Below are positions 22,316 to 46,805 of a stretch of DNA of 64,000 bases, one piece after another (within the stretch, counting starts at the first letter, position 1; each line of letters opens with the position of its first letter). This DNA comes from Candidatus Binatia bacterium (GTDB lineage: Bacteria > Desulfobacterota > Binatia > UBA12015), in assembly GCA_035651755.1 (NCBI GenBank), contig DASRFA010000056.1, forward strand, positions 417,846 to 481,845. Reading direction: 5' to 3'. Both the position numbers and the translations under genes were made by a program. The notes under the pieces are model-generated. The model made no database searches and was not told where the DNA came from. It was given only the letters and a program-made list of their open reading frames with translations.

Positions 22316-22450
22316 GCCCTGCCGAGATCATTCGAGTCGAAATCGGGAGTCAAGGCCGCCACGTCGGCGCCGCCATCCGGACCGTCGTCCGACCCCGGTA
22401 CGTCGTCGATCCTGCCGGGGATCGGGACGGACGCTCGGCGATCCTCCGAG

Positions 22451-22524
22451 TGGTCGCACCGTGACTCGAACACGGGACCTCTTGCATGTGAGGCAAGCGC
22501 TCTAACCAGCTGAGCTATGCGACC
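22451..22524 (-). tRNA. tRNA-Val (anticodon CAC)
   Basis: The reverse complement folds as a cloverleaf. The acceptor stem GGTCGCA/TGCGACC pairs 7/7. The D-stem is GCTC/GAGC, the anticodon stem CTTGC/GCAAG with loop CT-CAC-AT, the T-arm CCGTG-TTCGAGT-CACGG, and the discriminator is A. CCA is not encoded. Confidence 0.8.
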
Positions 22525-22597: not shown

Positions 22598-23113
22598 TCA
22601 GCGCGTCTCCTGCCCGCGCAGGAACGCCGCGAGCTTCCGGACGTCCGGCAGCGCCTGCTCCATCCCCTCGCTGGCGCCGATCGTGCCCATGCACGTGTCG
22701 GTGTGGAGCCCGTGCGCCCCCTGCCGCGCGAAGACGAGGTACTTGGTACCCGGCTTGAACGCGACGCCGCACGCGCTGGCATCGGCGTGCGTCACGACCG
22801 TCACGTGGCCGGTCGCGCGCCCCTTCAGCGATTCCGTCACGTCGAAGCCGAAGGCGACGGCGTTCGGGTGGGCCGGGTCCTCGGCGTCGTGGCCGTGGAC
22901 GCCGGCGTGCGGGATCACGTCCTCGTGCGCGGGCGTCGGGCCCTCGACCACCGTTCCGACGAACACGTCGCTCGCGCGGTCGAACTCGGAAGCGCGCGAT
23001 CCGGACGTGCAGCTGCAGGCGACGGCGTCGGGCGCGAAGCTGCCCATCGCCCACGCGAACGAGGCGAGGAGGAAGAAGGGGCGGGAAGCGGTGACGACGG
23101 CTCGGAATTTCAT
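22598..23113 (-). CDS. secreted TIMP/NTR-like protein (paralog 1), predicted mature N-terminus Cys-Ser-Cys
   Basis: The signal peptide ends AVA|CSC. The mature region carries TIMP N-domain motifs: CSC..S..F..A.DVFVGTV, SLKGRA, ACGV.F..G.KYLVFAR and HTDTCMG. Confidence 0.65.
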   Translation of the reverse strand: MKFRAVVTASRPFFLLASFAWAMGSFAPDAVACSCTSGSRASEFDRASDVFVGTVVEGPTPAHEDVIPHAGVHGHDAEDPAHPNAVAFGFDVTESLKGRATGHVTVVTHADASACGVAFKPGTKYLVFARQGAHGLHTDTCMGTIGASEGMEQALPDVRKLAAFLRGQETR

Positions 23114-23616
23114 GGCGACTTGGATCCCTCCACCGGCTGCGCGGCCGCCGACGACAGGCGCCGCACCTCGGCGACGGCCGCGTCGAGCTTCTCGCCCGAT
23201 ACGTTGCCCATGCAGAGGTCGGTTTGCAGCGCCGCCTTCGCGGTGTCGCGGCGCGCGAACACCAGGTAGGTCTGGCCCTTCTCGAACGTGACGCCGCAGG
23301 CCGCCGCGCCGCTCGGCGTCGCGACCTCGAGCTTCTTCGCGGCGCCGCCCTTGAACGATTCGCCGACCTCGAGCACCCAGCGCACCTGGCGGGTGCTCAC
23401 GGCGGTCGTGCCGCCGTCCGGCGGCGCCTGGTCGCCGGGCGGGGTCACCGGGCCCTCGGACGCGGTCGCGACGAAGACGTCGGTCGCGCGCTCGTACTGG
23501 GAAGCGAGCGACTCGGGCACGCAGCTGCAGGCGGCCGACTCCCGCGCGAGCAGGGCTGCGGAGGCGACGACGGCGCCGAGCGCGGCCGCGCGGACGGAGC
23601 GGAAGAGCGGGGTCAT
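23110..23616 (-). CDS. secreted TIMP/NTR-like protein (paralog 2), predicted mature N-terminus Cys-Ser-Cys
   Basis: The internal ATG at 23614-23616 gives MTPLFRSVRAAALGAVVASAALLARESAA|CSCVPES. The mature region aligns motif-by-motif with vertebrate N-TIMP: CSCVP..F..ATDVFVA, WVLEVGESFKG, TPSGAAACGVTFEKGQTYLVFAR and QTDLCMG. Confidence 0.7.
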   Translation of the reverse strand: MTPLFRSVRAAALGAVVASAALLARESAACSCVPESLASQYERATDVFVATASEGPVTPPGDQAPPDGGTTAVSTRQVRWVLEVGESFKGGAAKKLEVATPSGAAACGVTFEKGQTYLVFARRDTAKAALQTDLCMGNVSGEKLDAAVAEVRRLSSAAAQPVEGSKSP

Positions 23617-23730
23617 GCGCGAAATCCTATCACCGGCCGGCGGCGCCGTCGCGTGCCATGCCGGGCGCGATGCCGTACAACCGACGTCGGGCCGGCCCGT
23701 CGCCGATCGCGGTCGCAGCCCGCCGACGCC

Positions 23731-24906
23731 ATGGATTTCGCCTACACGGCCGAGCAGGAGCGCTTCCGCGCGGAGGTGCGGACCTTCCTCGAGCGCGCCC
23801 TGCCCGCCGGGTGGGGCACCGCGTCGTATCGCCCGCCGCGCGAGGCCGCGGAGATCGTGGCATTCGATCGCGCCTTCCAGAAGAAGCTCTACGACGCCGG
23901 CTACAGCGGCCTCTCGTGGCCGAAGGAGTACGGCGGGCGGGGCGCGAGCCTCGTCGAGCAGATCATCTTCATGGAGGAGACCGCGCGCGCGAAGGCGCCG
24001 CTCCCGGTGAACCTCGCAGGTTTGACGATGGCCGGGCCCGTTCTCATCAAGCACGGGACCGAGAAGCAGAAGGCACGCTTCCTCCGGCCGATCCTCACCT
24101 CCGACGAGATCTGGTGCCAGGGCTTCTCGGAGCCCGGCGCCGGCTCCGACCTCGCGTCGCTCCGAACCAGCGCCGTCCTCGACGGCGACGACTTCCTCGT
24201 GAACGGCCAGAAGGTCTGGACGAGCTGGGCGCACCAGGCCGACTGGTGCATGCTCCTCGTCCGCACCGACCCGCAGGCGCCGAAGCACAAGGGCATCACC
24301 TTCCTCGTCGTCGACATGCGGTCGCCCGGGATCACCGTCCGGCCGCTCCGCCAGATCAGCGGCGACGACGACTTCAACGAGCTGTTCTTCGACAATCTGA
24401 GAGTGCCGCGCGAAAACGTGATCGGCGAGGTGAACCGCGGCTGGGAGATCGCGATCACCTGCCTCATGCACGAGCGCGCGACGCTCACGTTCCAGCGCCA
24501 GCTCCAGTCGCGCACGGCATTCGCCGACATGCTGCCACACCTGCGCGAGCGCGCGGTCGGCGACGCGGCGCTGCGCCAGAAGGTCGCACAGCTCCATCTC
24601 GAGGGCGAGATCATCCGCTTGACGGCATACCGCGGCTTGACGCAGCAGCTGCGCGGCCGGCCGCCCGGGCCCGAGGGATCGATCGAGAAGCTCTTCTGGA
24701 GCGAGATGTACCAGCGCCAGCTCGAGGCGATGCTGGAAACGCTCGGCCCGTACGCGCAGCTCATGCCCGACTCGCCGCGCGCCGTCGACGACGGGCGCTG
24801 GCCGCACCTCTTCCTCTACTCGCGCGGCCGGACGATCGCCGCGGGAACTTCCGAGGTGCAGCGGAACATCATCGCCGACCGCGTGCTCGGCCTGCCGCGG
24901 TCGTAG
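23731..24906 (+). CDS. acyl-CoA dehydrogenase family protein
   Basis: The ACAD N, middle beta-barrel (IWCQGFSEPGAGSDLA) and C-terminal domains are present. The ATG at 23731 follows an arginine-rich leader in the track ORF. Confidence 0.85.
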   Translation: MDFAYTAEQERFRAEVRTFLERALPAGWGTASYRPPREAAEIVAFDRAFQKKLYDAGYSGLSWPKEYGGRGASLVEQIIFMEETARAKAPLPVNLAGLTMAGPVLIKHGTEKQKARFLRPILTSDEIWCQGFSEPGAGSDLASLRTSAVLDGDDFLVNGQKVWTSWAHQADWCMLLVRTDPQAPKHKGITFLVVDMRSPGITVRPLRQISGDDDFNELFFDNLRVPRENVIGEVNRGWEIAITCLMHERATLTFQRQLQSRTAFADMLPHLRERAVGDAALRQKVAQLHLEGEIIRLTAYRGLTQQLRGRPPGPEGSIEKLFWSEMYQRQLEAMLETLGPYAQLMPDSPRAVDDGRWPHLFLYSRGRTIAAGTSEVQRNIIADRVLGLPRS

Positions 24907-24929: not shown

Positions 24930-26516
24930 GTGCGCATCCCCGATCTCACGCTCGCGACCCTGCAGGGAGAGAAGCTGCGCCTTCGCCCCGAGCCGCCAGG
25001 CGTACGCCTCCTCCTCGTCTACAAGCGCGACTGCGAGACCTGCGGTCTCGTCCTGCCCGTGCTCGAGCGCCTCTCGCGACCGCTGCACGCGCGCGGCCTC
25101 GAGACGATCGGCGTCTCGCAGAGCGACGCCGACGCGACGCTCGACGCGATCAACGAGCACGGCCTCTGCTTTCCGCAGGCGCTCGATTCGGACCTCGCGC
25201 TGTCGTTCGCGCTCGAGATGGAGGTCGTCCCCGCGGTCGTGCTCGTGGACGCGGAAGGCGAGGTGCTCGACCGCACCGACGCGCTCGACCTCGACGCCCT
25301 GACGCGAGTGCTGCACGCGGCCGGCGACCGCGCCGGCGTCGAGCGCGCCGAGATCGACCGCGCGCTCGCTCCATTCCGCCTACCCTCCTTCCGCCCGGGC
25401 TGCGCCTCGCGAACGCTCGACGCCGGCGTGCAGCGCCGGCGCGACCTCGAGCGCGGACGAGGACGCCTCGCGGCGCGGCGCTTCGAGGTCGGCGACGACG
25501 AGGACGAGCACGAGGCGCTCTTCGCGCGCGGCGTGACCGACGGGCTCCCGGTCGTGCCGCCGACCGAGGAGCGCGTGATCCGGATGCTCGCCGGCACGCC
25601 GCGCGACCCGCAGGACGTCGTCGCGCTCGTGCCGCCGAACCTGGCGCCCGCGACGATCGAGAAGATCGCGATCAACGCCGTCATGGCCGGCTGCAAGCCG
25701 GAATACCTGCCGGTCGTGATCGCAGCGGTCGAGGCCGCGTGCACCGACGAGTTCAACATGCACGGCGTCCTCGCGACGACGTACTTCGCCGCGCCGCTCG
25801 TGATCGTGAACGGCCCCATCCGGAAGCGCATCGGCCTCAACTCCGGCATCAACGTGTTCGGCCAGGGCCACCGCGCGAACGCGACGATCGGCCGCGCGCT
25901 GAACCTCGTCGTCCGGAACGTGGGCGGCGGGCGCCCCGGCGAGGTCGATCGCGCCACGCTGGGACAGCCCGGCAAGTTCACGTACTGCATCGCCGAGAAC
26001 GAGGAGGCGAGCCCGTGGCCGCCGCTCCACGTCGAGCGCGGCTTCGCCGCCGAGGACTCGACGGTCACGCTCTTCGCCGCCGAGGCCCCGCGCGCGATCG
26101 TCGACCAGACGAGCCGAACGGCGGCCGGCCTCGTCAAGTCGCTCGGCCTCGCGATGGAGAGCGTCGCGCACCCGCGCGCACACGGCTACGGCGACATCGT
26201 CCTCGTCCTCCCGCCCGAGCACGTCGCGACGATTCGGCGCGACGGCTGGACGAAGGACGACGTGCGCCGGCGCATCCAGGAGGTGACGGCGCGGCCGCTC
26301 GCGGAGCTCTTCGCCGACGAGGAGTGCCGGGAAGGTCTCCCGCGCGCGCTCGCAGGCAATCGCGATCCGGCGACCGTGACGCTTCCGAAGTTCCGGAGCT
26401 CGGAGATGATCCACATCGTCGTCGCGGGCGGCCCGGCCGGGAAGTTCTCGGCCGTGATCGGCGGCTGGGTGCAGGGGCCGATGGGCTCGACGATGGTGAC
26501 GCGGAAGATCGGCTGA
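24930..26516 (+). CDS. thioredoxin-fold (CxxC, TlpA/redoxin-like) N-domain fused to ~380-aa domain of unknown function
   Basis: A GTG at 24930 is preceded by GAAGGCGA. The redoxin motif is YKRDCETCGLVLP. The C-terminal domain (AINAVMAGCKPEY..NSGINVFGQGHRAN..) was not recognised. It lies 24 nt after the ACAD stop on the same strand. Confidence 0.55.
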   Translation: MRIPDLTLATLQGEKLRLRPEPPGVRLLLVYKRDCETCGLVLPVLERLSRPLHARGLETIGVSQSDADATLDAINEHGLCFPQALDSDLALSFALEMEVVPAVVLVDAEGEVLDRTDALDLDALTRVLHAAGDRAGVERAEIDRALAPFRLPSFRPGCASRTLDAGVQRRRDLERGRGRLAARRFEVGDDEDEHEALFARGVTDGLPVVPPTEERVIRMLAGTPRDPQDVVALVPPNLAPATIEKIAINAVMAGCKPEYLPVVIAAVEAACTDEFNMHGVLATTYFAAPLVIVNGPIRKRIGLNSGINVFGQGHRANATIGRALNLVVRNVGGGRPGEVDRATLGQPGKFTYCIAENEEASPWPPLHVERGFAAEDSTVTLFAAEAPRAIVDQTSRTAAGLVKSLGLAMESVAHPRAHGYGDIVLVLPPEHVATIRRDGWTKDDVRRRIQEVTARPLAELFADEECREGLPRALAGNRDPATVTLPKFRSSEMIHIVVAGGPAGKFSAVIGGWVQGPMGSTMVTRKIG

Positions 26517-26544: not shown

Positions 26545-28014
26545 TCACTGCACGTAGCCGAGCGTGCGCAGGCGATCGGCGACGTCGGCCGGCGGCTGCG
26601 TCGCACCCGTCGTCGCGGCGCTCGTCGCAGCGTCCGGCGCGACGGCCGAGCCGCCGCTCCTGACGGCCGCCAGGAACTCGGGCGCGGCGTCGCTCCGGCT
26701 CGCGAGGAGGGCGACGACCTCCGCGTCGTAGTCCTCGAGCGGCCGACGCTCGGGGCCTTCCGCGAGCATCGTGGGGTGGCGATCGCCGGGATCGCGCGCG
26801 GCGTCGAAGCTCATCCACTGGTCGTGCTTCTTCCAGAGGACGAGCGTGCGCGCCGCGTCGCGCACAGCGAGCGTCCGCCGCCACTCCTGGCCGGGGACGT
26901 ACATGCCGCTCAGGACCGGTCGCGGCGGAAGCGGCTCGCCGCGGAGCGCCGGCGCGAGGCTGCGGCCGTCGGCGTCCGGCATCGGCTCCACGCCCGCGAG
27001 CTCCGCGATCGTCGGGGCGACGTCGGCGAGCGACACCGGATCCGCGACGCGCCGCCCGCGGACGAAGCCGCTGCGCTCCGACCACACGACGAGCGGCACG
27101 TGCACCGACTCGTCGTACACGGTGCGGTGATGCGTCTTCCCGCCGTGCTCCATGAACTCCTCGCCGTGGTCCGACGTGACGACGACGAGAGTGTCGGACA
27201 AAGCTCCGGCGGCGCGCAAAGCGTCGAGCAGGTGCGCGATCGTGTCGTCGGTCGACCGCAGCTCGCCGTCGTAGAGCGCGAGCAGGTGCTGGAGGTCGCG
27301 CGGGTCCGGCTTCTCGGGAAAGCCGGCGCCGACGATGTTCCGGCCGTTCAGCGGCCCGGCGTAGAGCGGGTCGAACATCGACGCATAGGGCTCGGGCGGG
27401 ATGTAGTCGTAGTGCACGTCCCACATGTGGACGAAGGCGAAGAACGGCCGCGCCGAGCGGCCCTCGACCCAGACGCGGAACGCCTTCTCGACCGCCGCAT
27501 TCGTCCGGTCGGCGTGCGACTCGACGAGGCCTTTCATCTTGACGTCGGTCGCGTCGTAGTCGTGCGACATGCACGAGCGGTAGGCATCGAAGCCGCGGTC
27601 GAAGCCGTAGTACGGGTGGAGGAGAGGTCCGGAGTAGAAGCCGACCGTCTCGTAGCCGCGGCGCGCGAACGACTCCTGCAGGAGGTGCTCGCTGGGCGCG
27701 ATCGTGTCCTTCCAGCCGATCGTCCCGTGGTGGTGCGGGAGCCGTCCGGTGAGGAGCGTCACGTGCGACGGGAGCGTCCAGGCGGTCGCGCTGTAGGCGC
27801 GCTCGAAAACCACGCCCTCCCGCGCCAGGCGGTCGATCGCCGGCGTCACCGCGCGCGCGTTGCCGTAGGCGCCGACGCGATCGGCGCGCAGGCTGTCGAT
27901 CGAGATCAGGAGGACGTTCCGGGGTCCGGTCGAGCCGCCGCGATCGCACGCCGACGCGGCGAGCGTCGTCGCCGCGACCAGCAGCACGACGGCGAGCGAG
28001 CGATCCGGGTGCAC
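26545..28014 (-). CDS. sulfatase-like hydrolase/transferase (alkaline phosphatase superfamily), lipoprotein
   Basis: ISIDSLRADR, TSDHGE and the metal-binding H/D residues are present. A GTG start at 28012-28014 gives the signal peptide ...AATTLAASAC. Confidence 0.8.
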   Translation of the reverse strand: MHPDRSLAVVLLVAATTLAASACDRGGSTGPRNVLLISIDSLRADRVGAYGNARAVTPAIDRLAREGVVFERAYSATAWTLPSHVTLLTGRLPHHHGTIGWKDTIAPSEHLLQESFARRGYETVGFYSGPLLHPYYGFDRGFDAYRSCMSHDYDATDVKMKGLVESHADRTNAAVEKAFRVWVEGRSARPFFAFVHMWDVHYDYIPPEPYASMFDPLYAGPLNGRNIVGAGFPEKPDPRDLQHLLALYDGELRSTDDTIAHLLDALRAAGALSDTLVVVTSDHGEEFMEHGGKTHHRTVYDESVHVPLVVWSERSGFVRGRRVADPVSLADVAPTIAELAGVEPMPDADGRSLAPALRGEPLPPRPVLSGMYVPGQEWRRTLAVRDAARTLVLWKKHDQWMSFDAARDPGDRHPTMLAEGPERRPLEDYDAEVVALLASRSDAAPEFLAAVRSGGSAVAPDAATSAATTGATQPPADVADRLRTLGYVQ

Positions 28015-28058: not shown

Positions 28059-28625
28059 TTGCCACGCCCAGCGCCGAGAGCGATCATCGGCGACGTGGCG
28101 ACGACGCTTCTCGACCCGACCGACGAGCGCGTCCCGCTCGCGCGGAAGAGCGCCCCGCGGCCGACCGAGCTGTCCGGCCGCGTCGCGTTGCTCGACATCG
28201 TGAAGCCGCGCGGCGACGTGTTCCTCGACCGGCTCGAGCAGCGCCTGCGCGAACGCGTCCCCGGGATCGAGGTCGCGCGCTATCGCAAGCCGACCTTCAC
28301 GAAGCCCGCGCCGGAGGACCTCCGCCTCGAGATCGCCCAGCACTGCAGCGCGGTCATCGAGGCGCTCGCCGATTGAGGGTCGTGCGTGTCGTGCAGTGTG
28401 CACGACTGCGTGGACCTCGAGGGGCGCGGCGTCCCGGCCGTGTTCGTCGCGTCGAGCACGTTCGTCGACGCGGCGGAGTCGCAGGCGCGCGCGCTCGGCT
28501 TCCCGGAGGTCGCGCGTGTGTTCGTCGCGCACCCGATCCAGGACGCGACCGACGACGAGATGCGCGCCAAGGCGGATGCGGCGGTCGAGGCGCTCGTCGC
28601 CGCGCTGACGCGACCGCGCGGCTGA
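28059..28625 (+). CDS. UGSC-family selenoprotein candidate (in-frame UGA=Sec at 28374-28376)
   Basis: Track ORFs 28059-28376 and 28386-28625 are in the same frame and separated only by TGA. Translation reads ..IEALAD-U-GSCVSCSVHDC... The motif U-G-S-C gives the family name. A hairpin 11 nt downstream fits a bacterial SECIS. Confidence 0.6.
28388..28406 (+). promoter_or_regulatory. SECIS-like hairpin downstream of the in-frame UGA
   Basis: GTCGTGCA-GTG-TGCACGAC is a perfect 8-bp stem. It starts 11 nt after the UGA and has G/U in the apical loop. Confidence 0.5.
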
Positions 28626-29907: not shown

Positions 29908-30219
29908 GCGGGAATTTCACGAGAGGGATCGCTCCCCGCGCCGCGCACGGGGGATTTGCCCCAGCGCGACGCGCGCACCGTTTCTCACGATCGCGAATCC
30001 TTTTCTCGACGGCGTCCTAGCGCCGGTGAGCCGATCGCGCAACGACCTGCAGTGCGCTGCGGCGCCGCGGCCCGAGCGTGCAAGCCATTGCGCGTTCGCG
30101 CACGCCGCGCCCGTCGCCGCGATCGCTCCCGAGCGTGGCATCGCGATTGCGACCTTGCCCCATCGGCGCCGCGCGCGCCGCCTCTCGGCGGCGTGCCGCG
30201 GCCCACCAAGGGGCACACC

Positions 30220-33200
30220 ATGGACCTCCAGCTGCGTCCAGTCGTCGCCGCGACCCTGGTTCTCCTCGGACTCGGTACCGCGCCTGCGGGCGCGGCCGGT
30301 GGGCCGACCCTGGAGATCTCGACCCCGGAGGGCCGGACGACCCGGGCAATCGTCGAGGGAAGCGCCGTCGTCGTGAGCACCGGCGTCGACCCGCGGCGGG
30401 CGACCACCGTGCTTCCGCCGGCGGCGAGCGACGGCTCACCCGAGCTCGTGATCGTCGAGCTGCGCGGCGCGCCGCTCGTCCGACGGGTGCAGGCGCGAGC
30501 GACCCGCGCTCCGCAGTCGGCGCACGCGGCGATCGCGGCGGAGCACCGGAGGGTCGTGGACGAGATCGCCCGGCTCGACGGCGGCGCCGCCCGCGCGCGC
30601 GGGCTCGGCCCGGGACCGGTCCGCCGCGAGTACACGCTGCTGTTCAACGGCATCGCGGCGACGCTCGACGCCGCCGCGCAGGCCGCGCTCGCCGCTCACC
30701 CCGACGTGAGGGCGATCCGGCCCGATCGCGAGGTCAAGGCGGTCCTCGACACGAGCGTCCCGTTCGTGCGCGCGCCGGCGTTCTGGTCGCGCCACGGCGG
30801 CTACCGCGGTAGCGGACGGGTCATCGCCGTCGTCGACACCGGCATCGACTACACCCACGCCGACCTCGGCGCGTGCACCGCGGTCGGCGCCGGATGCAAG
30901 GTCGCGGGCGGATACGACTTCCAGAACGGCGACGACGATCCGCTCGACGACTACGGCCACGGGACGCACGTCGCCGCGATCGCGGCCGGCAACGGGTCGC
31001 TCCTCGGCGTCGCGCCCGACGCGACGCTGCTCGCGTACAAGGTGCTGGACGCGTACGGGAACGGCCTCGAGTCGACCGTGATCGCCGGGATCGAAGGGGC
31101 CGTCGACCCGAACGGCGACCTCGACACGAGCGATCACGTCGACGTCATCAACCTGAGCCTCGGCGGACCCGGCGGCCCGGACGATCCCGGCGCGCAGGCC
31201 GTCGACGGAGCGACCGCGGCCGGCGTGCTCGTCGTCGCGGCGGCCGGGAACAGCGGCGGCTACTACACGGTCGGCTCTCCCGGCGTGGCGCGAACGGCGC
31301 TCACCGTCGGCGCGATCAGCGAGGCGGGAGCCGCGGCGGCCTATTTCACGTCCGGCGGACCGACGGCAGACACGTTCGATCTGAAGCCCGAGATCTCGGC
31401 TCCGGGCGTGAACATCTGCGCCGCTCGCGCCGCCGGAACGGAGCTCGGCGCGACGTGCATCGACGCAACCCACGTCGTCCTCGACGGAACTTCGATGGCG
31501 ACGCCTCACGTGGCCGGCGCCGCGGCGCTCTTGCGCGGGGTCTTTCCCGCTCTGTCGCCCGCCGACGTCAAGTCGCTGCTCGCGCAGAACGGCCGTCCCT
31601 CGAACGACTCCGCGCTGCAGGTCGGAGCGTCCATCCTCGACGTGTCCGCCTCGGGCTCGGCCGAAACGGTCGTCGACCCGCAGACCCTGAGCTTCGGGCT
31701 CGACGACCTCCTGGTGCCGACGTGGGCCCCGACGCGGACCCTCACCGTGCGGAACGTGGGCGCGACGGCGCGCTCCTACACGATCGGCGCGACCGGACAC
31801 GCCTTCGGCCTTCCGGCCGGCGCGACCGTGACCTTCGATCCCGCGTCCTTCTCCCTCTCCCCCGGCCAGTCGCGGACGATCCAGGTCGCGCTCACCGTCG
31901 ACAACGCCGCGGTGCCGAACCAGACGACCGCGCCCAGTGCCTACGAGGCGATGATCGAGCTCCGGTCCACCGGCGAGACGCAGCGCGTGCCGATGATCTT
32001 CATCAAGTCGCCGCTCCTGCGCATCCAGACCGATCAGGTGGCGACGCTCGTCTACGCGCACGATCGCTCGAGCATCTACAACGCCTACGCCGTGGTGCCG
32101 GCCGGAACCACGGTGGACATGCTCGTCCCGGCGGGCACGTACGACGTCATCATGATGTTCAGCGCGAGCATTGCGGCGTACGTGGTGCACGAGGGGATCG
32201 TCGTGACCGATCGTCATGACGAGATCATGAGCTCCACCGAGGCGAGCCACACCGTGAGCCTCGCGGGCAAGAGCGAGGTCGGAAGCCCGCTCACCGAGTC
32301 GATTCGCGCGATCACGATCTACCACCGCGCCTCGGGCCTGGGCCTCGCGACGCTGAGCTCGGGCGCGGCGGTTCCGTTCGCGATCCCGATGAGCTCGATG
32401 AGCTCCGCGTACGACGTCGATCTCGCGCTCATGGCGCAGCCCGGCGACCGGACGTACCTCGTGAACGAAGGCCTGGCCGGCGTGTCGGAAAGCGCCGCTC
32501 TCGCGAACACGCCGTCCCAGCTCACGCACGGAGCGTTCCGCTACTACGCGAACCCGGGCGAGACGCCTTCGGGGACGATGGAGTTCCTCTCGGTGATGGT
32601 CGGCTCGACGTTCGGATTCGGGCTCGGCCCACCGCCCGTGAGCCCCGTCGACCGCGACTTCTGGGTGGCGCCGGCTCCGCGGCCGGGGGCCCGCATCTTC
32701 GTGCAGCCGGCGGTGCTGCTCACCGGGAACCCGGACACCTCCCACAACTGCCCGTGGTACCGCGGCGCGACCGCGAGCGGCGTGATCCAGGCCTTCAACG
32801 CGCTCGATCCGGACGATCCCGTCTACGAGACGTCGACCGGCGAGCTGCCGCTCGACCTCGGGCCGGCGTCGCTGTTCGTCAAGCTCGTCAGCACGAACGC
32901 GTGGCTGCAGGCGCGCAACGTGGCCGCGGCGTGGACGTGGACGTTCCATTCCCCGGGAGGCGACGGTCCCGAGGCCCCCGGCGGCACGATCGGCTACCGC
33001 CTGCTCGCGAACGACCACGTCGTCGCCTCCGGCGTGATGCCGCAGTCGGGCTTCGGCGGGCCGTTCCTGCCGTTCCTCTTCCCGCTCGCCGCACGTCCGT
33101 ACGTGCTCGAAACCGATCCGCTGCCCTACTGGATCGGGGGCGTGCGGGCGACGGCGCGGATCGCGGCCTCGTTCGACACTCGGAGCTACCCCGCGGACGT

Positions 33201-34893
33201 CGACCCGCCGTACCTCCGGCGTGTCGAGGTACGGAGCGCCGGAGCGCTCGCCGAGGTCGTCCCGGTCGGGATGGATCCGACGGTGCTCATCGAGGCGCAC
33301 GACGACGTCGACGCGACGGTCGCGCTCTCGCTCCAGGCGACCGCGGCCGGCGTCAAGACGCTCGTGCCGGTCGTGCCGATCGGACCCGGGGTCTACGAGG
33401 CGACGCTCACCGGCGCCTGCGACGACGGCGGTGCGGTCGACCTCCTCGTGAGCGCCGCCGACTCGTCGGGCAACCGGCTCGACGAGTGGCTCACGCCGGC
33501 ATTCGTCTGCCGCAGCGCAACCTGCGGCAACTGGATCATCGAGCCGGGCGAGGCGTGCGACGACGGCAACCAGGTCTCCGGAGACGGCTGCAACGCCGTC
33601 TGCTCGAGCACCGAGCGGTGCGGCGACGGCGTCCTCGACGCCGGCGAGGCATGCGACGACGGCAACACGACCGGCGGCGATTGCTGCTCCGCCACCTGCC
33701 GGCCCGAGCGCGCCGGGTCGGCGTGCGACGACGGCCTCTTCTGCGACGGCGCGGACGCTTGCGACTCCCTCGGCGCGTGCGCGCGCCACGGCGCGCCGCC
33801 GTGCGCGAGCGGGCCCGAGTGCGCGACCTCCTGCGACGAGTCGATCGACGCGTGCGGGCCCGCGCCCGCCGGCGAGTCCTGCAGCAGCGACGGCAACGGC
33901 TGCACGGCGGACGCCTGCGACGGCGTTGGGGCGTGCGCGCACGAGGCCCTCGACACCGGCCCGTGCGACGATGGCGTCTTCTGCAACGGCGCGGACGCCT
34001 GCGCGGCCGGCGCCTGCACGGTGCACGCTGGCGACCCGTGCGACGGCGGCGGCGAATGCGCGGACACGTGCCAGGAGGCGTCGGACGACTGCTTCTCGTA
34101 CGGCGGCACCGCGTGCACCGACGACGGCGAGATCTGCACGATCGACATCTGCAACGGGGCCGGCCTGTGCATCCACCCCGCCGCCCATGCGGGGCTCGTG
34201 TGCCGGTCCTCGTCCGATGCGTGCGACGTCGCCGAGGAGTGCGACGGCGTCCTCGCGACCTGCCCGCCCGACACGGGCCTCGCGGACAGCGACCGCGACG
34301 GGCTGTGCGACGGGCTCGACCCCTGCACGAACGTCGCGGGAGCGCGCGACTTCACGAGCCCGCCGGTCGCGCGCCTCAGGCTCGGGCGCATCTTCGCCGA
34401 CGCGACACCGGGAAACGACCTCCTCACCGTGTCCGGCACGTTCAATCTGCCGACCGGTACGTCGTTCTTCCGGCTCTTCCCGCTCGGCGGAATCGCACGC
34501 GTCGTGCTCGTGGACGGGCTGGGCGCGCCCGAGGCGGACGTCGTGCTGCCGAGTGGCTCCTATTCGAACGCGACCAAGCGCGGCTGGTCACAGTCGCGGA
34601 ACGCCAAGTCGTGGACCTATCGCGATCGCACCGGGACGCCGCCCGGCGGCATCCAGAAGCTCGTCGTGCGGACCGTCGGGCGCTCCGCGGACGTGCCGGG
34701 CGGACCGGCGAAGCTCACGCTGTCCGGCCGGAATGGGACCTACCCGTTCACCGACGCGAACTTGCCGGCGAACGTCGTGGTCACGCTCGGCAACCAGGCG
34801 GCGGCCGCGGCGGGGCGGTGCGCGGAGTCGGCGTTCCCCGCCGGCACTTGTGGCTTCAACGGCGCGCGGACGCAGGCGACGTGCATCCGTTGA
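30220..34893 (+). CDS. secreted subtilisin-like serine protease (S8) with large C-terminal extension containing Myxococcus cysteine-rich (DUF4215-like) repeats
   Basis: The signal peptide is MDLQLRPVVAATLVLLGLGTAPAGAA. The S8 triad is VAVVDTGIDYTHADL, HGTHVAAIAAG and GTSMATPHVAGAAALL. The C-terminal repeats are CGDG..D.GE.CDDGN...GD.C.A.C. Confidence 0.85.
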   Translation: MDLQLRPVVAATLVLLGLGTAPAGAAGGPTLEISTPEGRTTRAIVEGSAVVVSTGVDPRRATTVLPPAASDGSPELVIVELRGAPLVRRVQARATRAPQSAHAAIAAEHRRVVDEIARLDGGAARARGLGPGPVRREYTLLFNGIAATLDAAAQAALAAHPDVRAIRPDREVKAVLDTSVPFVRAPAFWSRHGGYRGSGRVIAVVDTGIDYTHADLGACTAVGAGCKVAGGYDFQNGDDDPLDDYGHGTHVAAIAAGNGSLLGVAPDATLLAYKVLDAYGNGLESTVIAGIEGAVDPNGDLDTSDHVDVINLSLGGPGGPDDPGAQAVDGATAAGVLVVAAAGNSGGYYTVGSPGVARTALTVGAISEAGAAAAYFTSGGPTADTFDLKPEISAPGVNICAARAAGTELGATCIDATHVVLDGTSMATPHVAGAAALLRGVFPALSPADVKSLLAQNGRPSNDSALQVGASILDVSASGSAETVVDPQTLSFGLDDLLVPTWAPTRTLTVRNVGATARSYTIGATGHAFGLPAGATVTFDPASFSLSPGQSRTIQVALTVDNAAVPNQTTAPSAYEAMIELRSTGETQRVPMIFIKSPLLRIQTDQVATLVYAHDRSSIYNAYAVVPAGTTVDMLVPAGTYDVIMMFSASIAAYVVHEGIVVTDRHDEIMSSTEASHTVSLAGKSEVGSPLTESIRAITIYHRASGLGLATLSSGAAVPFAIPMSSMSSAYDVDLALMAQPGDRTYLVNEGLAGVSESAALANTPSQLTHGAFRYYANPGETPSGTMEFLSVMVGSTFGFGLGPPPVSPVDRDFWVAPAPRPGARIFVQPAVLLTGNPDTSHNCPWYRGATASGVIQAFNALDPDDPVYETSTGELPLDLGPASLFVKLVSTNAWLQARNVAAAWTWTFHSPGGDGPEAPGGTIGYRLLANDHVVASGVMPQSGFGGPFLPFLFPLAARPYVLETDPLPYWIGGVRATARIAASFDTRSYPADVDPPYLRRVEVRSAGALAEVVPVGMDPTVLIEAHDDVDATVALSLQATAAGVKTLVPVVPIGPGVYEATLTGACDDGGAVDLLVSAADSSGNRLDEWLTPAFVCRSATCGNWIIEPGEACDDGNQVSGDGCNAVCSSTERCGDGVLDAGEACDDGNTTGGDCCSATCRPERAGSACDDGLFCDGADACDSLGACARHGAPPCASGPECATSCDESIDACGPAPAGESCSSDGNGCTADACDGVGACAHEALDTGPCDDGVFCNGADACAAGACTVHAGDPCDGGGECADTCQEASDDCFSYGGTACTDDGEICTIDICNGAGLCIHPAAHAGLVCRSSSDACDVAEECDGVLATCPPDTGLADSDRDGLCDGLDPCTNVAGARDFTSPPVARLRLGRIFADATPGNDLLTVSGTFNLPTGTSFFRLFPLGGIARVVLVDGLGAPEADVVLPSGSYSNATKRGWSQSRNAKSWTYRDRTGTPPGGIQKLVVRTVGRSADVPGGPAKLTLSGRNGTYPFTDANLPANVVVTLGNQAAAAAGRCAESAFPAGTCGFNGARTQATCIR

Positions 34894-37936: not shown

Positions 37937-40255
37937 TCACCACAGCCGGAGCTGCCGCGGCGCGCCCGTCGCCTCGTCGAACTCGCGCCCGATCTCCGGG
38001 AGGATCGCGTCGGCGACCGGCCGCAGGACCCGCTCGACGTAGTGCTCGCGGTCGATGCCGGCGGGCAGCGGGCGCCCGGGCAGCACCGGCTCCGGACCCT
38101 CGATCGTCATCACGTAGCGGATCACCGGGCCGGCCGCGGCGCCGGCCTTGCGGGCCGCCTGGACGTGCGGCGGGATCGCGGCCGTGTAGCGGTCGACGGA
38201 GCCCTTGCGGATGCGCTTCGCGTAGACGAGCTCGCGGTCGAGCTCGCCCCGCCGGAGCGCCGCGACCGTCTCGCCGACGAACGGCATCGGGTCCTCCTCG
38301 CCGAAGAGGCGCACGAGGATGCCCTCCTGCAGCCGGCGCGCGATCGCCGGCCAGTCGCGCCGGACCGACTCGAGGCCGACGACGACGAGGCCTCCGTCGA
38401 CCCAGCCGGCGTAGCGCTTCTTGCTGCCGCCGACGCCGCTCCGGACCCGCGGCATGAAGAACCGCTCGAGGACGTGCTCGAGCTCGAGCGTGAGCTTGGG
38501 CTCGACGCGGTAGCGCTCGCGCACGCGCTCGACGATCCGGCGCTCGACGCGCTCCCGCAGCGCCTCGGCCTCCGCGCGCGCCGCCTCGCCCGGCTCCTCC
38601 CGCGACAGCTTGACGAACACCGAATCCGTGTCGCCGTACACGACGGCGAAGCCCTCGTCCTCGAGCGCCTCGCGCGTCCACGCGAGGATCTGCTGCCCGA
38701 AGCCGGTGATCGCGTTGGCGACCGCGGCGTCGAAGAAGCGGCACGCCGGCGATCCCAGGACGCCGAAGAGCGCATTCATCATGATCTTGATCGCCTGGTC
38801 GGCGTGGCGATCGCCGCGCGCCTTCGCGGCCTCGCGGCTCGCCATGAAGCGATCGATCACCCCGGGCAGGATCGCGGCGTCGCGCGCGAAGCGCGCGCCG
38901 TTCGGCGCCTCGATCGCGTCGACGTCCGGGCGGCGTGCGCGGGCGTGCGCGAGCGGGTCGAGCTGGAAGGTCCGGATGAGGCTCGGGTAGAGGCTCTTGA
39001 AGTCGAAGACGGCGACGTTCCGGAACAGGCCCGGCACGGAATCCAGCACGGCGCCACCCTGGACGAGCTCGCTCGGGCGATCCATGTCGACGTTCGGCGC
39101 GACCACGCCGCGCCGCCGGAGCTCCGGCAGATACACGAGGTCGAACGACGCGATGCTGGCGCCGACGCGGTCGAGCTGCATGCCCGTCAGCAAGCTCCGC
39201 TCGATCGTGAGGTCGAGGAGACCTTCGCGGTCGACGATCTCGCGCGCCAGGCGCGCGTCCTCGAGGTTGTAGGCGACGAGCGCTTCCGGGTCCTCGCGGA
39301 AGAGCCGGTTGATCTCGAGCGCGGCGTCGGGGACGTCCGTGTCGAGGAGCTTCCCGCGACCCAGGATGGCGCGCGCCGCGGTGTCGAGGCGGTAGTCCTC
39401 CAGCCGAAGCGCGTCGCGCACGAGCGAGGCCGCGTCGAGCACCATCCGACCCGCGACGTCGGCCCGCCCCTGACGCGTGAACGTCCGGTCCTGCTCGAAG
39501 CGGACGTCGAAGGCGAGGCGCCCGAGGTGGCACGGGATGCCGAGATCGGCGCACCGCCGCGCGACCACGCGGAGGTCGAAGTCGACGACGTTCCACCCGA
39601 GGACGATGTCCGGATCGAGCGCGCGGATGCGCTCTCCCAGGGCGGCGAGGAGGCGCACCTCGTCCGGGTGGCTCTCCGCGCCGGCGACCGGACGGCTCGA
39701 CACGAGGTGAGCCTCCTCGCCCCCGCCGTGGACGATCGCGAACGCGAAGACGCGGCTCGCATCCGGCGTCGTCTCGATGTCGAGCGACGCGACCCGGAGA
39801 TCGGGGCGGCAGTCGGCGGGCGAGAGGCGCGGGTTCCGGAACACGACGAGGCGCGATTCCGACCTCGCGCGCTCCTCCCCGTCGCCCTCGATCGCGATCG
39901 CGGCGCGGATGCCGTGGTCGATCAGGTAGCGGTACGCGAACCGGATGTCGGCCTCGAACGACGGCGCGCCGGCGGCGGCCAGGCGGTCGCGCAGCAGCGG
40001 CACGTCGCGCGGCGTCGCGACCGTCACGCGCGCGACCGGCGCGTCGTCGAGGTCGCGGAGCCCCTGCACGTCGACCGCGACCCCACGCTCGCGCGCAACC
40101 CGGCCCACGTCGCGCGTGCGCACGAAGAAGTAGGGCCGGAAGCGATCGTCCTCGACGAGGAAGGCGGCGCCGTCGGCGAGGCGGCCGAAGAGCTGAACGA
40201 TCGGTCGATCGCGCTCGACCCGGTAGGTCGGCTGCAGGATGAGACCGGTGCGCAT
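37937..40255 (-). CDS. polB: DNA polymerase II (family B) with 3'-5' exonuclease domain
   Basis: ExoI is LDIETT. The PolB motifs are DFKSLYPSLI, KIMMNALFG and YGDTDSVFV. Length is 772 aa. Confidence 0.9.
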   Translation of the reverse strand: MRTGLILQPTYRVERDRPIVQLFGRLADGAAFLVEDDRFRPYFFVRTRDVGRVARERGVAVDVQGLRDLDDAPVARVTVATPRDVPLLRDRLAAAGAPSFEADIRFAYRYLIDHGIRAAIAIEGDGEERARSESRLVVFRNPRLSPADCRPDLRVASLDIETTPDASRVFAFAIVHGGGEEAHLVSSRPVAGAESHPDEVRLLAALGERIRALDPDIVLGWNVVDFDLRVVARRCADLGIPCHLGRLAFDVRFEQDRTFTRQGRADVAGRMVLDAASLVRDALRLEDYRLDTAARAILGRGKLLDTDVPDAALEINRLFREDPEALVAYNLEDARLAREIVDREGLLDLTIERSLLTGMQLDRVGASIASFDLVYLPELRRRGVVAPNVDMDRPSELVQGGAVLDSVPGLFRNVAVFDFKSLYPSLIRTFQLDPLAHARARRPDVDAIEAPNGARFARDAAILPGVIDRFMASREAAKARGDRHADQAIKIMMNALFGVLGSPACRFFDAAVANAITGFGQQILAWTREALEDEGFAVVYGDTDSVFVKLSREEPGEAARAEAEALRERVERRIVERVRERYRVEPKLTLELEHVLERFFMPRVRSGVGGSKKRYAGWVDGGLVVVGLESVRRDWPAIARRLQEGILVRLFGEEDPMPFVGETVAALRRGELDRELVYAKRIRKGSVDRYTAAIPPHVQAARKAGAAAGPVIRYVMTIEGPEPVLPGRPLPAGIDREHYVERVLRPVADAILPEIGREFDEATGAPRQLRLW

Positions 40256-40322
40256 CGCTCGTGAGGCTAACGTCGCACGCCGCGACGCGCGGCGCGACCG
40301 CGACGCGTGCCCGAGCTCCCAG

Positions 40323-40766
40323 CTAGAAGCCCAGCAGCTTCTCCCGGAGGCTCGGCGTCGCCGTCGGCCCGGTGATGGGCGGCGTCTTCTCCACGGTCTC
40401 CACCAGGATGCGCTGCGGGCTGAACGCGAGGTAGCCCGTGATCTTCAGGTACTGGTTCGGAAGCGCGCTCGAGATCTCCTGGAGGAGCTTCGGGTCGCCG
40501 TCGAAGATGAAGTTCGGATGGATCGGCTCGACCTGCTGCAGGATGTCGGCGCCCATCACCGGTCCGACCGACAGAACGATGATGTTGGTCATCGCGAAGG
40601 GCCGGACCGGACCGGTGCCGATCATCACGTCGAGCATCTCCCACGGCCTCACGTCGGGTCCGCCGCCGAGGAAGCCCTCGACGCGGAGCTGGATCGGCCC
40701 CTGGAACGGCCGGATGCCGAGGAGCAGCGGCAGCAGCAGCGTCAAAACAAGCGCGGCGCGACGCAT
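40323..40766 (-). CDS. secreted hypothetical protein
   Basis: The signal peptide MRRAALVLTLLLPLLLG is followed by non-biased composition. Confidence 0.5.
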   Translation of the reverse strand: MRRAALVLTLLLPLLLGIRPFQGPIQLRVEGFLGGGPDVRPWEMLDVMIGTGPVRPFAMTNIIVLSVGPVMGADILQQVEPIHPNFIFDGDPKLLQEISSALPNQYLKITGYLAFSPQRILVETVEKTPPITGPTATPSLREKLLGF

Positions 40767-43653: not shown

Positions 43654-45490
43654 GGCCGAACGCACGCGCGCTCGGCTTGCCGACGCTCTCGACGCCCTCG
43701 CGCGGGAAACGCCCGCGGACGAGGCGTCGCGCGATCGGCTCGCGCACCCCGACGACGTCGCAATGGCCCTCTACGCCGCCGGCGAGCTCGACGGCGAAGC
43801 GCGCGACCGCTTCGAGAGCCACGTCGCCGCGTGCGCGCGCTGTGCCGGCGACCTCGCGCTCGCGATCCGGATCGATCGCGGCTCGCGGGCGGTGCCCCCG
43901 AGCGCGACGGGCGCGGTCGCGTCCGCGTCCGGAGCGGATCGCGCGGCCGGCGTCCGCCACGACCTCGCCGCCGCGAGCGCGGAGCTGGATCACGCGTCGG
44001 AGCCGGAGCGCGAGACACGCGCTGCGCGCGCCGCGCGACGTCCCGCGCGCACGGAGCGACGCGCCGGCCGCTCGCGCCTCCGCCGCTTCGCGATCGCAGC
44101 CGGCGCGGTGCTGGTGGTCACGGCCGGGGTTCTCGCGATCGGAGCTCGCATGGCGCTCGACCGCCTCGAGCCGATCCTGGTCGCGGAGCTCGGAAGCGCG
44201 CTCCACCGCACGGTGAGCGTGGACGACCTCGGCGTGGCGGTCGCCGGCGGACCGGGCGTGCGGATCGACGGGCTTCGCGTGTCGGACGACCCGCGCTTCG
44301 CCGACGCGAGCTTCGCCGAGGTCGGACGCGCCCGCCTGCGCGTCGATCCTGCGGCGCTCCTCCGCGGAACGCTCGACGGCGCAATCGACGTGGACGACGC
44401 GCTCGTCCGCCTGGTCCGCGGCCGCGACGGAACCTGGAACGTCGAGACGCTCGGCGGCGAGCGCGCGACCGCCGGCCCCGGAGCCGCCGACGCGGTCCGC
44501 GCGCCGCGCGACCGCGCGCGCACCGAGCGCGGCGGCGACGGCAGCGAGCGCCGTGTCCGCATCACGTCGGCGAAGGTCCGGGAGGGCACGCTCGAGATCG
44601 CGGATCGCAGCAGCCCCGGCCGCGACGTCGTCCTCCGCGACGTCGACCTCGACGTGCGAAGCGCGGACCCCGAGCGCGCCGCGGTGATCGCGCTCGGCGG
44701 CCGGCTCGGAGCCGCGAGCGGCGATCGACCCGACGGCGGCAAGGTCGCGATCGCGGGCGAGGTCGGCCCGTTCGTGAGCGGGGAGACCGCGCGCTGGCAC
44801 CTGACCTCCGTCCGCCTCGACCGGGTGCCGGTGACCGACATGCCCGGCGCGCCGGCCTCCGTGCGCGGAGAGCTGAGCTTCGACGGCGCGCTCGACAGCG
44901 CGGGCGACGGGCTCGCGGCCGTCGTCGCGAATGCCGCCGGCGGCGGGCAGCTCGGGCTCTGCTGCGGCGCCCTGGGGGACGGCAACCTGGCGCGCGACCT
45001 CGTCGGCGCGTTGAGCGCGGACGTCGCGACCGGCGGCGGGAGCTCGTTCGGACAGGCGCTGATGGCGGCCGCAAACCGGGAGCCGGCGGTCGCGAGCGCG
45101 CTCGCCGCTCCCGACACCGCATTCGAGAACATCGCGGGCGGAGTGCGCGTCGCTTCGGGAGACCTGTCGTTCCAGGACCTGGCACTCGCGACGAGCCTCT
45201 TCTCGGCGCGCGCGAGCGGCACGCTGTCGCGGGCGGGCGCGGTCGCCGTCGCGGGAACCGCGGACCTCGACCCGCGCTTCGCCGCGCTCGTGGCGGATGC
45301 CGCCCCCGTCCTCCGGCCGCTCGTCGGCCGCGACGGGCGCCTGGCGGTCCCTTTCCGGGCGAGCGGCACGTGGCCGAAGCTGCGGGTGGACGTCGACATG
45401 GCGCGCGCAGTGGCGTCGGCGGTGGGCCTGGACCCGCGAGCGCTCGCGATCGCGTTCGCGCTGCCCCGCTCGGTGCGCTCGGGGGCGTGA
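43646..45490 (+). CDS. anti-sigma factor (zinc-finger N-domain) fused to TM plus AsmA-like periplasmic domain
   Basis: The GTG at 43646 overlaps the sigma stop by 8 nt. The N-terminal motif HVAACARCAGDL is an anti-sigma zinc-finger type. The TM helix is FAIAAGAVLVVTAGVLAI. The remaining ~430 aa resemble AsmA/DUF748 N-terminal regions. Confidence 0.6.
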   Translation: MAEAERTRARLADALDALARETPADEASRDRLAHPDDVAMALYAAGELDGEARDRFESHVAACARCAGDLALAIRIDRGSRAVPPSATGAVASASGADRAAGVRHDLAAASAELDHASEPERETRAARAARRPARTERRAGRSRLRRFAIAAGAVLVVTAGVLAIGARMALDRLEPILVAELGSALHRTVSVDDLGVAVAGGPGVRIDGLRVSDDPRFADASFAEVGRARLRVDPAALLRGTLDGAIDVDDALVRLVRGRDGTWNVETLGGERATAGPGAADAVRAPRDRARTERGGDGSERRVRITSAKVREGTLEIADRSSPGRDVVLRDVDLDVRSADPERAAVIALGGRLGAASGDRPDGGKVAIAGEVGPFVSGETARWHLTSVRLDRVPVTDMPGAPASVRGELSFDGALDSAGDGLAAVVANAAGGGQLGLCCGALGDGNLARDLVGALSADVATGGGSSFGQALMAAANREPAVASALAAPDTAFENIAGGVRVASGDLSFQDLALATSLFSARASGTLSRAGAVAVAGTADLDPRFAALVADAAPVLRPLVGRDGRLAVPFRASGTWPKLRVDVDMARAVASAVGLDPRALAIAFALPRSVRSGA

Positions 45491-45572
45491 TCGCGCCGCT
45501 CGCGCCCTCGACCGCGCGGCGATCGCGGCGAGGCCTTCGTGCGAGCGCCGGGGGCTGCTAAGGGTGCGAGCG

Positions 45573-46805
45573 ATGGCGCGATGCCTCGACGGACATCGCA
45601 TCCTGGACCTCACCGACGAGCGCGGGTTCCTCTGCGGTCGCATGCTCGCCGACCTCGGCGCGGACGTCGTCAAGGTGGAGCCGCCGGGCGGGGATGCCGT
45701 GCGAGGACGGGGCCCGTTCGCGGGTCGCACGCCGGACCCCGAGCGCAGCATCCCGTGGCTCGCGTACAACGCCGGGAAGCGCGGCATCACGCTCGACGTC
45801 ACGCGACCGCGCGGCCGGGAGATCCTCGATCGCCTCTGCGCAAGCGCGGACGCGCTCGTCGAGTCGTACGATCCGGACGCCCTGCGCGACGCTCGCCTCG
45901 ACTACGCGTCGGTCGCCGCCCGGCACCCGCACCTCGTCCTGTGCTCGATCTCGCCTTTCGGGCGGAGCGGCCCGCACGCGGGCTACCGCGGGAGCGACCT
46001 CACCGTAACGGCGATGGGCGGCAACATGGCGCTCACCGGCGACCCCGACCGCGCGCCCCTCCGCTGCACGATGCCGAGCTCGTACTTTCACGGCGGCGCG
46101 GAGGCGGCGACCGGCCTCCTGATCGCGCTCTACGCGCGCGACGCCGTCGGCCGTGGCCAGCACGTCGACGTGTCGCTGCAGGCCGCGATGGTCTCGACCA
46201 TCATGACCGGCGCGAGCCAGTGGTGGCAGCACCGCCGCGACCGCGGGCGGAGTGGCGCCCTCTACGTCGTCGGCAACACGCTCCAGCGCGAGGTCTGGCG
46301 CTGCCGCGACGGCTTCGTGTCGTACGCGCTGCGCGGCGGCCCCGCGCGCATCCCTGGCCTGGTCGCGACCGCGAAGTGGATGGCCGAGGAGGGCATCGAC
46401 GCGCCCGCCTGGAATCGCGACTGGTCGGCCTACAACCACAACAACCTGACGCAGGCCGAGGTGGACGAGCTGTCGCGCCCGCTCCAGGTGCTCTTCGACC
46501 GGAAGACGATGCGCGAGCTCTTCGCGGGTGCGATCGAGCGCGGGCTCATGCTCGCGCCCGTGAACGACGCGCGCGAGATCGCCGCCAGCGAGCAGCTCGC
46601 GGCGCGGAGCTTCTTCGCCGAGATCCGCGACGAGGGCCGCGGCCTTTCGTATTCACTGCCCGCGCGCTTCGCCCGGGCGAGCGACGTCGAGATGGACGTG
46701 CGCGGGCCCGCGCCGCGGCTCGGCGAGCACAACGCCGCCGTCTACGGCGAGATCGGGATCCGCGACGCCGAGCTCGCCGATCTCCGGCGCGAGGGCGTCG
46801 TATGA
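45573..46805 (+). CDS. CoA-transferase family III (CaiB/BaiF-like)
   Basis: The N-terminal motif is ILDLTDERGFLCGRMLADLGADVVKVEPPGG and the protein shows the class III CoA-transferase fold. The ATG is at 45573. Confidence 0.85.
   Translation: MARCLDGHRILDLTDERGFLCGRMLADLGADVVKVEPPGGDAVRGRGPFAGRTPDPERSIPWLAYNAGKRGITLDVTRPRGREILDRLCASADALVESYDPDALRDARLDYASVAARHPHLVLCSISPFGRSGPHAGYRGSDLTVTAMGGNMALTGDPDRAPLRCTMPSSYFHGGAEAATGLLIALYARDAVGRGQHVDVSLQAAMVSTIMTGASQWWQHRRDRGRSGALYVVGNTLQREVWRCRDGFVSYALRGGPARIPGLVATAKWMAEEGIDAPAWNRDWSAYNHNNLTQAEVDELSRPLQVLFDRKTMRELFAGAIERGLMLAPVNDAREIAASEQLAARSFFAEIRDEGRGLSYSLPARFARASDVEMDVRGPAPRLGEHNAAVYGEIGIRDAELADLRREGVV

Follow-up and report, generated by a model that had tools for sequence, protein, structure and literature searches.

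A conserved in-frame UGA and downstream hairpin point to a UGSC-family selenoprotein gene in a Candidatus Binatia genome

Two open reading frames on the forward strand of a Candidatus Binatia contig (28059-28376 and 28386-28625) share a frame and are interrupted solely by a TGA at 28374-28376, which raises the question of whether this codon ends a short gene or is read as selenocysteine (Sec) within a longer one. Positions are those of the window, the 64,000-nucleotide stretch of DNA that was analyzed. The initial annotation, made from the letters alone, took the two frames to be one selenoprotein of the UGSC family with a hairpin beginning 11 nt past the TGA, and this layout is confirmed in the sequence. 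Read-through gives ...IEALAD-U-GSCVSCSVHDC... at the junction (as a junction peptide with Sec, ...IEALAD-U-GSCVSCSVHDCVDLEGR; over a longer stretch, ...CSAVIEALAD-U-GSCVSCSVHDCVDLEG...). With a probability of roughly 0.9, we consider positions 28095-28625 to be a genuine Sec-encoding gene of the UGSC family that specifies a single protein of about 175 residues, a reading supported by each of the checks proposed with it that was run. The features that define the gene are as follows.

28095..28625, + strand: probable complete UGSC-family selenoprotein gene, with a GTG start, 93 codons, the Sec-UGA, 82 codons and an ordinary TGA stop at 28623-28625
28374..28376, + strand: UGA codon, the U of the U-G-S-C motif, with TGA at the aligned codon in 81/81 sequences
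28059..28087, + strand: putative sigma-70-like promoter site, TTGCCA-17-GATCAT, from a consensus scan (9/12 matches)

The gene spans about 176 codons, of which the in-frame TGA is codon 94. The TGA and the part downstream of it stand as first drawn, but the start at 28059 does not, since a GTG at 28095 (MATTLLDPTDER...) is most likely used rather than the TTG at 28059, because the gene caller of the source assembly starts there and the N-termini of homologs align there. No clear Shine-Dalgarno sequence is visible before this GTG. The promoter-like site, a single hit where shuffles gave an expectation of 0.0, stops 7 nt short of it; a UGSC transcript made from there would have little or no leader. 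Codon-position GC is alike on either side of the TGA (GC3 0.92-0.96, GC2 about 0.5), and a scan of both strands found 28374 to be the only in-frame TGA in the window with the codon-position GC of a real gene on both sides. A second in-frame TGA, at 13796 on the - strand, has high GC3 on both sides and was rejected as an antisense shadow of + strand genes on account of its GC1 of 0.34-0.46.

Family membership was assessed by profile searches with the U of the window protein replaced by C. The protein scores 164.6 bits against NCBIfam NF041046, "UGSC family (seleno)protein" (curated cut-off 125; profile positions 4-147 of 147), and 164 bits against Pfam PF24696, "UGSC" (cut-off 25; profile positions 2-171 of 172). 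Both matches cross the TGA without a break, and scores above both curated cut-offs bear out the family assignment that had been read from the U-G-S-C motif. The EALAD-TGA-GSC context at the conserved position is the same in the window as in 80/80 relatives. The UGSC family was described in 2007-2008 (Zhang & Gladyshev, PMC1976440, PMC2398784), is among the most abundant selenoprotein families in GOS/aquatic metagenomes, with 255 Sec forms and 21 Cys forms in GOS (PMC2398784), and is listed as a selenoprotein with an NCBIfam accession in a current review (PMC13188914). Its protein is described as having an unknown function, a likely Trx-like fold and a UxxC redox motif (PMC1976440, PMC2398784, PMC13188914), and these papers report no experiment on any member.

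The window gene is thus a member of an already catalogued family, and the selenoprotein finding as such is not novel. It shares with the UGSC reference ABI76733.1 from Hyphomonas neptunium the same domain, length, ...EALAD-U-GSC... motif, TGA position and downstream hairpin, and nothing essential distinguishes it from the known family. Unlike most members, which have Thr-Thr or Thr-Ser at positions +4/+5, the window copy has Val-Ser; it is also parted from the usual upstream partner gene by an inserted sulfatase gene, and its host is a Binatia MAG. A literature search for Binatia together with selenocysteine found no paper. The present analysis adds a quantified RNA-level constraint and identifies a mis-split gene in the annotation of a Binatia MAG.

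Searches of a large protein collection with the two halves of the protein recovered 569 relatives for the N-terminal query, most of them 96-105 aa long, with 51-52% query coverage and ending in ...EALAD, and 1,223 relatives for the C-terminal query, mostly of 72-79 aa and including the window's own C-terminal ORF (P0121). Half-length relatives with a common endpoint look like the footprint of gene callers halting at a shared UGA. The window is identical, across the 20 kb compared, to contig k141_878682 of ENA ERZ27279688, whose annotation cuts the gene into products of 93 aa and 79 aa, each with a PF24696 match. The prediction that standard callers would split or truncate the gene therefore holds for the source assembly (93 + 79 aa) and for most database homologs, which end at the TGA. 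Independent ENA and JGI assemblies carry the identical split, which argues that the TGA is not a sequencing error, and the codon recurs in 80 other genomes; sequencing error had been named at the outset as one way in which the call could fail. If the Sec reading is right, the 93-aa and 79-aa "hypothetical proteins" of the Binatia assembly should become one selenoprotein, and most of the roughly 1,800 relatives found in the database are cut short in the same way. Two apparent fusions (P0044 and P0109) have Arg-rich linkers, look like read-through or frameshifted calls, and were left out of the evidence. Several C-terminal UGSC fragments of 72-73 aa (P0210, P0233, P0239) bear JGI names that are probably annotation spill-over, but a luciferase-like monooxygenase is encoded near UGSC in a Tepidiformaceae MAG (L073).

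To place the TGA in a comparative frame, one genome per species (GTDB representatives) was scanned, which gave at least 568 relatives, and the best 80 loci were analyzed. These come from MAGs of Dehalococcoidia/Tepidiformaceae, Binatia, Acidimicrobiia, Pseudomonadales/Azotimanducaceae, Myxococcota and Vicinamibacterales, so that the TGA-bearing set covers at least six phyla, including Chloroflexota, Binatia, Actinomycetota, Gammaproteobacteria, Myxococcota and Acidobacteriota. A TGA followed by G-S-C stands at the aligned codon in all 81 sequences (the 80 best relatives and the window), and in all 81 the frame stays open for a further 78-86 codons. For the codons downstream of the TGA other than those of the hairpin, dN/dS is 0.15 and 0.33 against the two closest relatives (L001 and L002, respectively). 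This open frame and purifying selection indicate, at the level of sequence comparison, that the window gene is translated past the UGA in this lineage. Three homologs have another codon at the U position.

L082 947-1486: P0002, TGT (Cys) at the U codon, hairpin retained
L083 3001-3543: P0003, GGA (Gly) at the U codon, hairpin retained
L084 972-1514: P0008, TGT (Cys) at the U codon, hairpin and C-S-V residues lost

The alignment of U with Cys that had been proposed as a check is thus found as TGT in the full-length homologs P0002 and P0008, set beside TGA in 80/80 relatives. P0002 keeps the hairpin despite its TGT, which suggests a recent Sec-to-Cys change, and the more divergent Cys form, P0008, reads ...CGSCTSGIVHD.

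For the decoding of the UGA, the initial annotation proposed the hairpin at +11 nt as a SECIS-like element of bacterial architecture. The RNA features considered here are the following.

28388..28406, + strand: candidate SECIS hairpin, 8 bp with a GUG loop, proposed from bSECIS criteria, synonymous-site freezing and loss in the Cys form P0008
28390..28404, + strand: family-wide hairpin core CGUGCA-GUK-UGCAYG, the inner 6 bp plus the loop, conserved
28374..28419, + strand: predicted extended lower stem from a single-sequence MFE fold, with the UGA region paired with 28415-28419

The hairpin consists of GTCGTGCA-GTG-TGCACGAC, with eight perfect pairs and a 3-nt loop, and starts 11 nt past the TGA; 11 nt between the UGA and the stem base is the spacing reported optimal for the minimal fdhF element. 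It folds alone with -10.9 kcal/mol, and the bare 6-bp core with -6.3 kcal/mol. The proposed fold of the UGA region, run from 28374 to about 28420-28425, has an MFE of -25.8 kcal/mol (z = -2.58 against shuffles), with 4/200 shuffles as stable. The extended lower stem finds no support in the alignment fold, which makes it lineage-specific or fortuitous. A gathering-threshold scan of the window with Rfam returned a tRNA-Val only and no family matching the hairpin.

The hairpin fits every constraint of the published bSECIS model. The model describes a loop of 3-9 nt, an upper stem of 4-16 bp and an MFE of -7.5 kcal/mol or lower (PMC13188914, Figure 2 legend); one of the first two loop nucleotides is a G, usually with a G or U after it, and 16-37 nt lie between the UGA and the loop (PMC13188914). 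The window hairpin has a 3-nt loop that reads G-U-G (G-U-K across the family) on a stem of 8 bp (6 bp for the family consensus), 19 nt separate the UGA from the loop, and the hairpin's own fold energy lies below the stability limit. The element resembles E. coli fdhF-type SECIS in being a stem-loop in the coding region directly 3' of the UGA, and the bacterial consensus in its small apical loop beginning G-U, its 19-nt spacing and its stability below -7.5 kcal/mol. It differs from bacterial SECIS elements in that its loop is just 3 nt and a bulged U is not evident, and its sequence is unrelated to that of the fdhF SECIS.

The 6-bp core can pair in 60/60 distinct sequences, with G-C to G-U as the sole variation (in ten of them). 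The two extra pairs that make up the 8-bp stem of the window occur in a minority of sequences, and the window owes them to the Val-Ser that replaces Thr-Thr or Thr-Ser at +4/+5. With an invariant stem, the 60 distinct sequences show no base-pair covariation, and the structural support thus consists of pairing potential together with the freezing of synonymous sites. The latter was quantified as codon entropy among sequences with the same residue at a given position. Codons +5 to +8 are ACG in 59/59, TGC in 81/81, AGT in 81/81 and GTG in 64/64, an entropy of 0 bits, against 1.30 +/- 0.42 bits (minimum 0.53) for the 62 other conserved degenerate codons of the gene. All six codons are in use at other invariant Ser and Leu positions, and AGT is an unfavored codon in a genome with GC3 above 0.9. 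These frozen codons indicate a constraint that acts on the hairpin at the RNA level, and conserved synonymous sites together with the fit to the published model uphold the proposal that it has the architecture of a bacterial SECIS.

A chance check shows how much of this weight the comparative data carry. The + strand of the window, at 72% GC, holds 70 perfect 8-bp hairpins with loops of 3-9 nt, four of which combine an upstream TGA at a distance of 16-37 nt with a G near the start of the loop. Perfect 8-bp hairpins are not rare at this GC content, and the hairpin alone is accordingly weak evidence; it is the comparative data that make it significant.

The machinery for Sec insertion was sought in the window and in the flanks of the related loci. 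Within the 64-kb window, tRNA scans and Pfam scans of 30 window proteins found no selA, selB, selD or tRNA-Sec. Among the flanks of the 80 relatives, a tRNA-Sec turned up at one locus, that of the Tepidiformaceae MAG L073, where it lies 6 kb upstream of UGSC.

L073 3958-4055, + strand: tRNA-Sec, ARAGORN anticodon TCA, Rfam RF01852 71.5 bits (cut-off 47)

The presence of this tRNA indicates that Sec is decoded in carriers of the same TGA and hairpin. Genes for sel proteins do not adjoin it; its neighbors encode the luciferase-like monooxygenase, a sulfotransferase, a DUF389 protein and a Usp protein.

Three other explanations of the locus have to be weighed against decoding as Sec. That the TGA is a true stop, separating two small genes (93 and 79 aa) or marking a selenoprotein pseudogene that decayed after loss of the Sec machinery, agrees with the two products annotated by the gene caller, with the lack of Sec machinery in the window and with the GTG that the second ORF has of its own at 28386. 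However, the 9 nt between the TGA and this GTG encode the invariant G-S-C, single-domain HMMs bridge the junction, and the AlphaFold2 model predicts one compact five-strand domain across it. The Cys homologs are contiguous proteins, rather than the separate genes in relatives that had been foreseen as a reason for the call to fail, and the sequence after the TGA is under purifying selection relative to the closest relatives and keeps the hairpin intact with its family-specific frozen codons. We consider a true stop improbable. Less probable again, and in our view very unlikely, is that conservation after the TGA reflects protein constraint on C-S-V-H-D rather than constraint on the RNA, with read-through achieved by other means. 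In its favor, the residues encoded by the hairpin are invariant or nearly so among Sec forms, and compensatory base-pair changes are lacking. Protein constraint would nonetheless leave synonymous codons free, yet Ser+7 is AGT in every one of the 81 sequences, and P0008 has G-I-V in place of C-S-V and no hairpin, which suggests that these residues are dispensable once UGA recoding is unneeded.

The remaining explanation, a genome-wide reassignment of TGA (to Trp or Gly, like genetic codes 4 or 25) or an assembly error at this codon, has a negligible probability. Some database homologs do have W or G at the U position (P0004, P0003, P0007), but the Gly of P0003 is a real GGA codon and not a translated TGA. 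TGA is, moreover, the stop codon used most often in the window, where it terminates 23/30 Pfam-supported genes and closes the UGSC gene itself, which points to the standard genetic code, and it ends 41 of the 81 orthologs (TAG ends 29 and TAA 11). Genome-wide reassignment is effectively refuted by this stop-codon usage, and an assembly error is contradicted by the split shared between the ENA and JGI assemblies and by the same TGA in 80 other genomes.

Under the preferred reading, the UGA at 28374 would be decoded as Sec during translation, and the hairpin that begins 11 nt further on, capped by a G-U loop, would serve as a bacterial SECIS. In the standard bacterial route, SelB in complex with GTP and Sec-tRNA(Sec) docks on the G-U loop at the hairpin apex when the ribosome arrives at the UGA. 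The window element would likewise bring SelB with Sec-tRNA(Sec) to the ribosome, where the complex would outcompete release factor 2, and translation would run on for 82 codons until an ordinary TGA, with no SECIS after it, ends the protein. The finding would imply that this organism decodes Sec.

What the protein does may be approached through its predicted fold. An AlphaFold2 model was built on the natural Cys homolog P0002, which is 65% identical to the window protein (pLDDT 88.2, pTM 0.84). The model has five strictly alternating beta-alpha units, and the U/C position (residue 95) lies between a strand (87-93) and a helix (98-111), which places the redox dyad CxxC/UxxC at the N-terminus of a helix. 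UGSC has been grouped with Trx-like-fold proteins (PMC2398784, PMC13188914), and the position of U-x-x-C at a helix N-terminus after a beta-strand is indeed shared with the Trx-fold UxxC/CxxU selenoproteins (Trx-, Prx-, DsbA- and SelW-like). The model does not, however, show the four-stranded mixed sheet in beta-alpha-beta-alpha-beta-beta-alpha order of the thioredoxin fold. Foldseek searches against the PDB matched it to flavodoxins, CheY-like receivers, lumazine synthase and B12-binding domains at TM 0.4-0.47, with no thioredoxin-fold proteins among these matches, and PDB sequence and profile searches with UGSC gave no match. The modeled fold is a generic three-layer alpha/beta/alpha sandwich with no standout match; as a predicted flavodoxin/Rossmann-like fold it contradicts the "Trx-like" label of the literature. 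The modeled strand-U-x-x-C-helix geometry would fit a selenenylsulfide/selenol-thiol redox couple, and the protein most probably alternates between a reduced state and a selenenylsulfide.

A second line of evidence comes from the gene neighborhood, in which a conserved partner gene recurs upstream of UGSC.

24930..26516, + strand: conserved partner gene, 528 aa, with a ResA/TlpA-type thioredoxin domain (CETC) at the N-terminus and a domain of ~380 aa at the C-terminus
26545-28014, - strand: sulfatase-family gene between the partner and UGSC, which breaks a unit that is tight in most genomes

Of the 73 loci with enough flank, 63 have a partner homolog upstream of UGSC in the same orientation, and in 58 the distance is no more than 150 bp; the other 10, mostly of Dehalococcoidia/Tepidiformaceae, lack it. 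The gap between the two genes is 1.8 kb in L001, similar to that in the window, and 2.1-2.5 kb in L071 and L078. The intervening sulfatase gene and the ten loci that lack the partner indicate that the partnership is not obligatory. The window's partner protein is 100% identical to NCBI HZR84310.1 of a Candidatus Binatia bacterium MAG and belongs to a family with at least 7,997 database matches of about 545 aa. Its C-terminal domain is very strongly conserved, with invariant Cys158, Cys255, Cys271, Cys353, His278, His414 and His431, and has no match in Pfam (to E <= 10), NCBIfam, or PDB sequences and profiles. In contrast to ResA/TlpA/CcmG oxidoreductases, the partner has no evident N-terminal signal peptide or membrane anchor on reading of its sequence, and it is fused to this ~380-aa domain for which Pfam, NCBIfam and the PDB hold no match. 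The papers on UGSC cited above give no functional description of the partner gene; Figure S1A of the GOS study has a panel on a UGSC/Unknown_1 fusion.

Gene neighborhood makes plausible a thiol/selenol relay between UGSC and the redoxin fusion, which would serve the putative catalytic domain of the partner. UGSC would probably swap reducing equivalents with this neighboring TlpA/ResA-like fusion protein. We tentatively hypothesize, as a possibility that we rate at somewhat below even odds, that UGSC is a flavodoxin/Rossmann-like dedicated selenol/thiol partner of a cytoplasmic redoxin-fusion protein, possibly tied to genes of acyl-CoA metabolism. If true, the pair would constitute a widespread, undescribed two-gene redox system in at least six phyla. 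The non-thioredoxin predicted fold and the conserved redoxin-fusion neighbor together offer an experimental handle on UGSC function.

Several further genes surround this pair. An acyl-CoA dehydrogenase (ACAD) gene at 23095-24906 (+) lies directly upstream of the partner, with pimeloyl-CoA dehydrogenase large subunit as its best NCBIfam match (below the cut-off). Such a gene is co-oriented with the partner in the window, L001 and L002 and divergent in six Pseudomonadales loci; the relatives with this gene are L001, L002, L009, L034, L042, L047, L068 and L074. A family III CoA-transferase is encoded at 45063-46805 of the window, and another lies near UGSC in L083. These neighbors may hint at a link to acyl-CoA metabolism or may just reflect the abundance of ACAD paralogs. 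Upstream of the ACAD-partner-UGSC cluster lies a tRNA gene.

22450-22524, - strand: tRNA-Val(CAC), also found in L002 at 1252-1326 (-)

This placement, common to the window and L002, indicates local synteny despite the label of L002 as Thermodesulfobacteriota MAG144. Two other genes of the window lie downstream of UGSC.

29956-34893, + strand: very large secreted subtilase of about 1,560-1,645 aa, with an I9 propeptide, an S8 domain and C-terminal Cys-rich DUF4215-type repeats
37937-40444, - strand: family-B DNA polymerase, Pol II-like, with exonuclease and polymerase domains, in a bacterial chromosome segment
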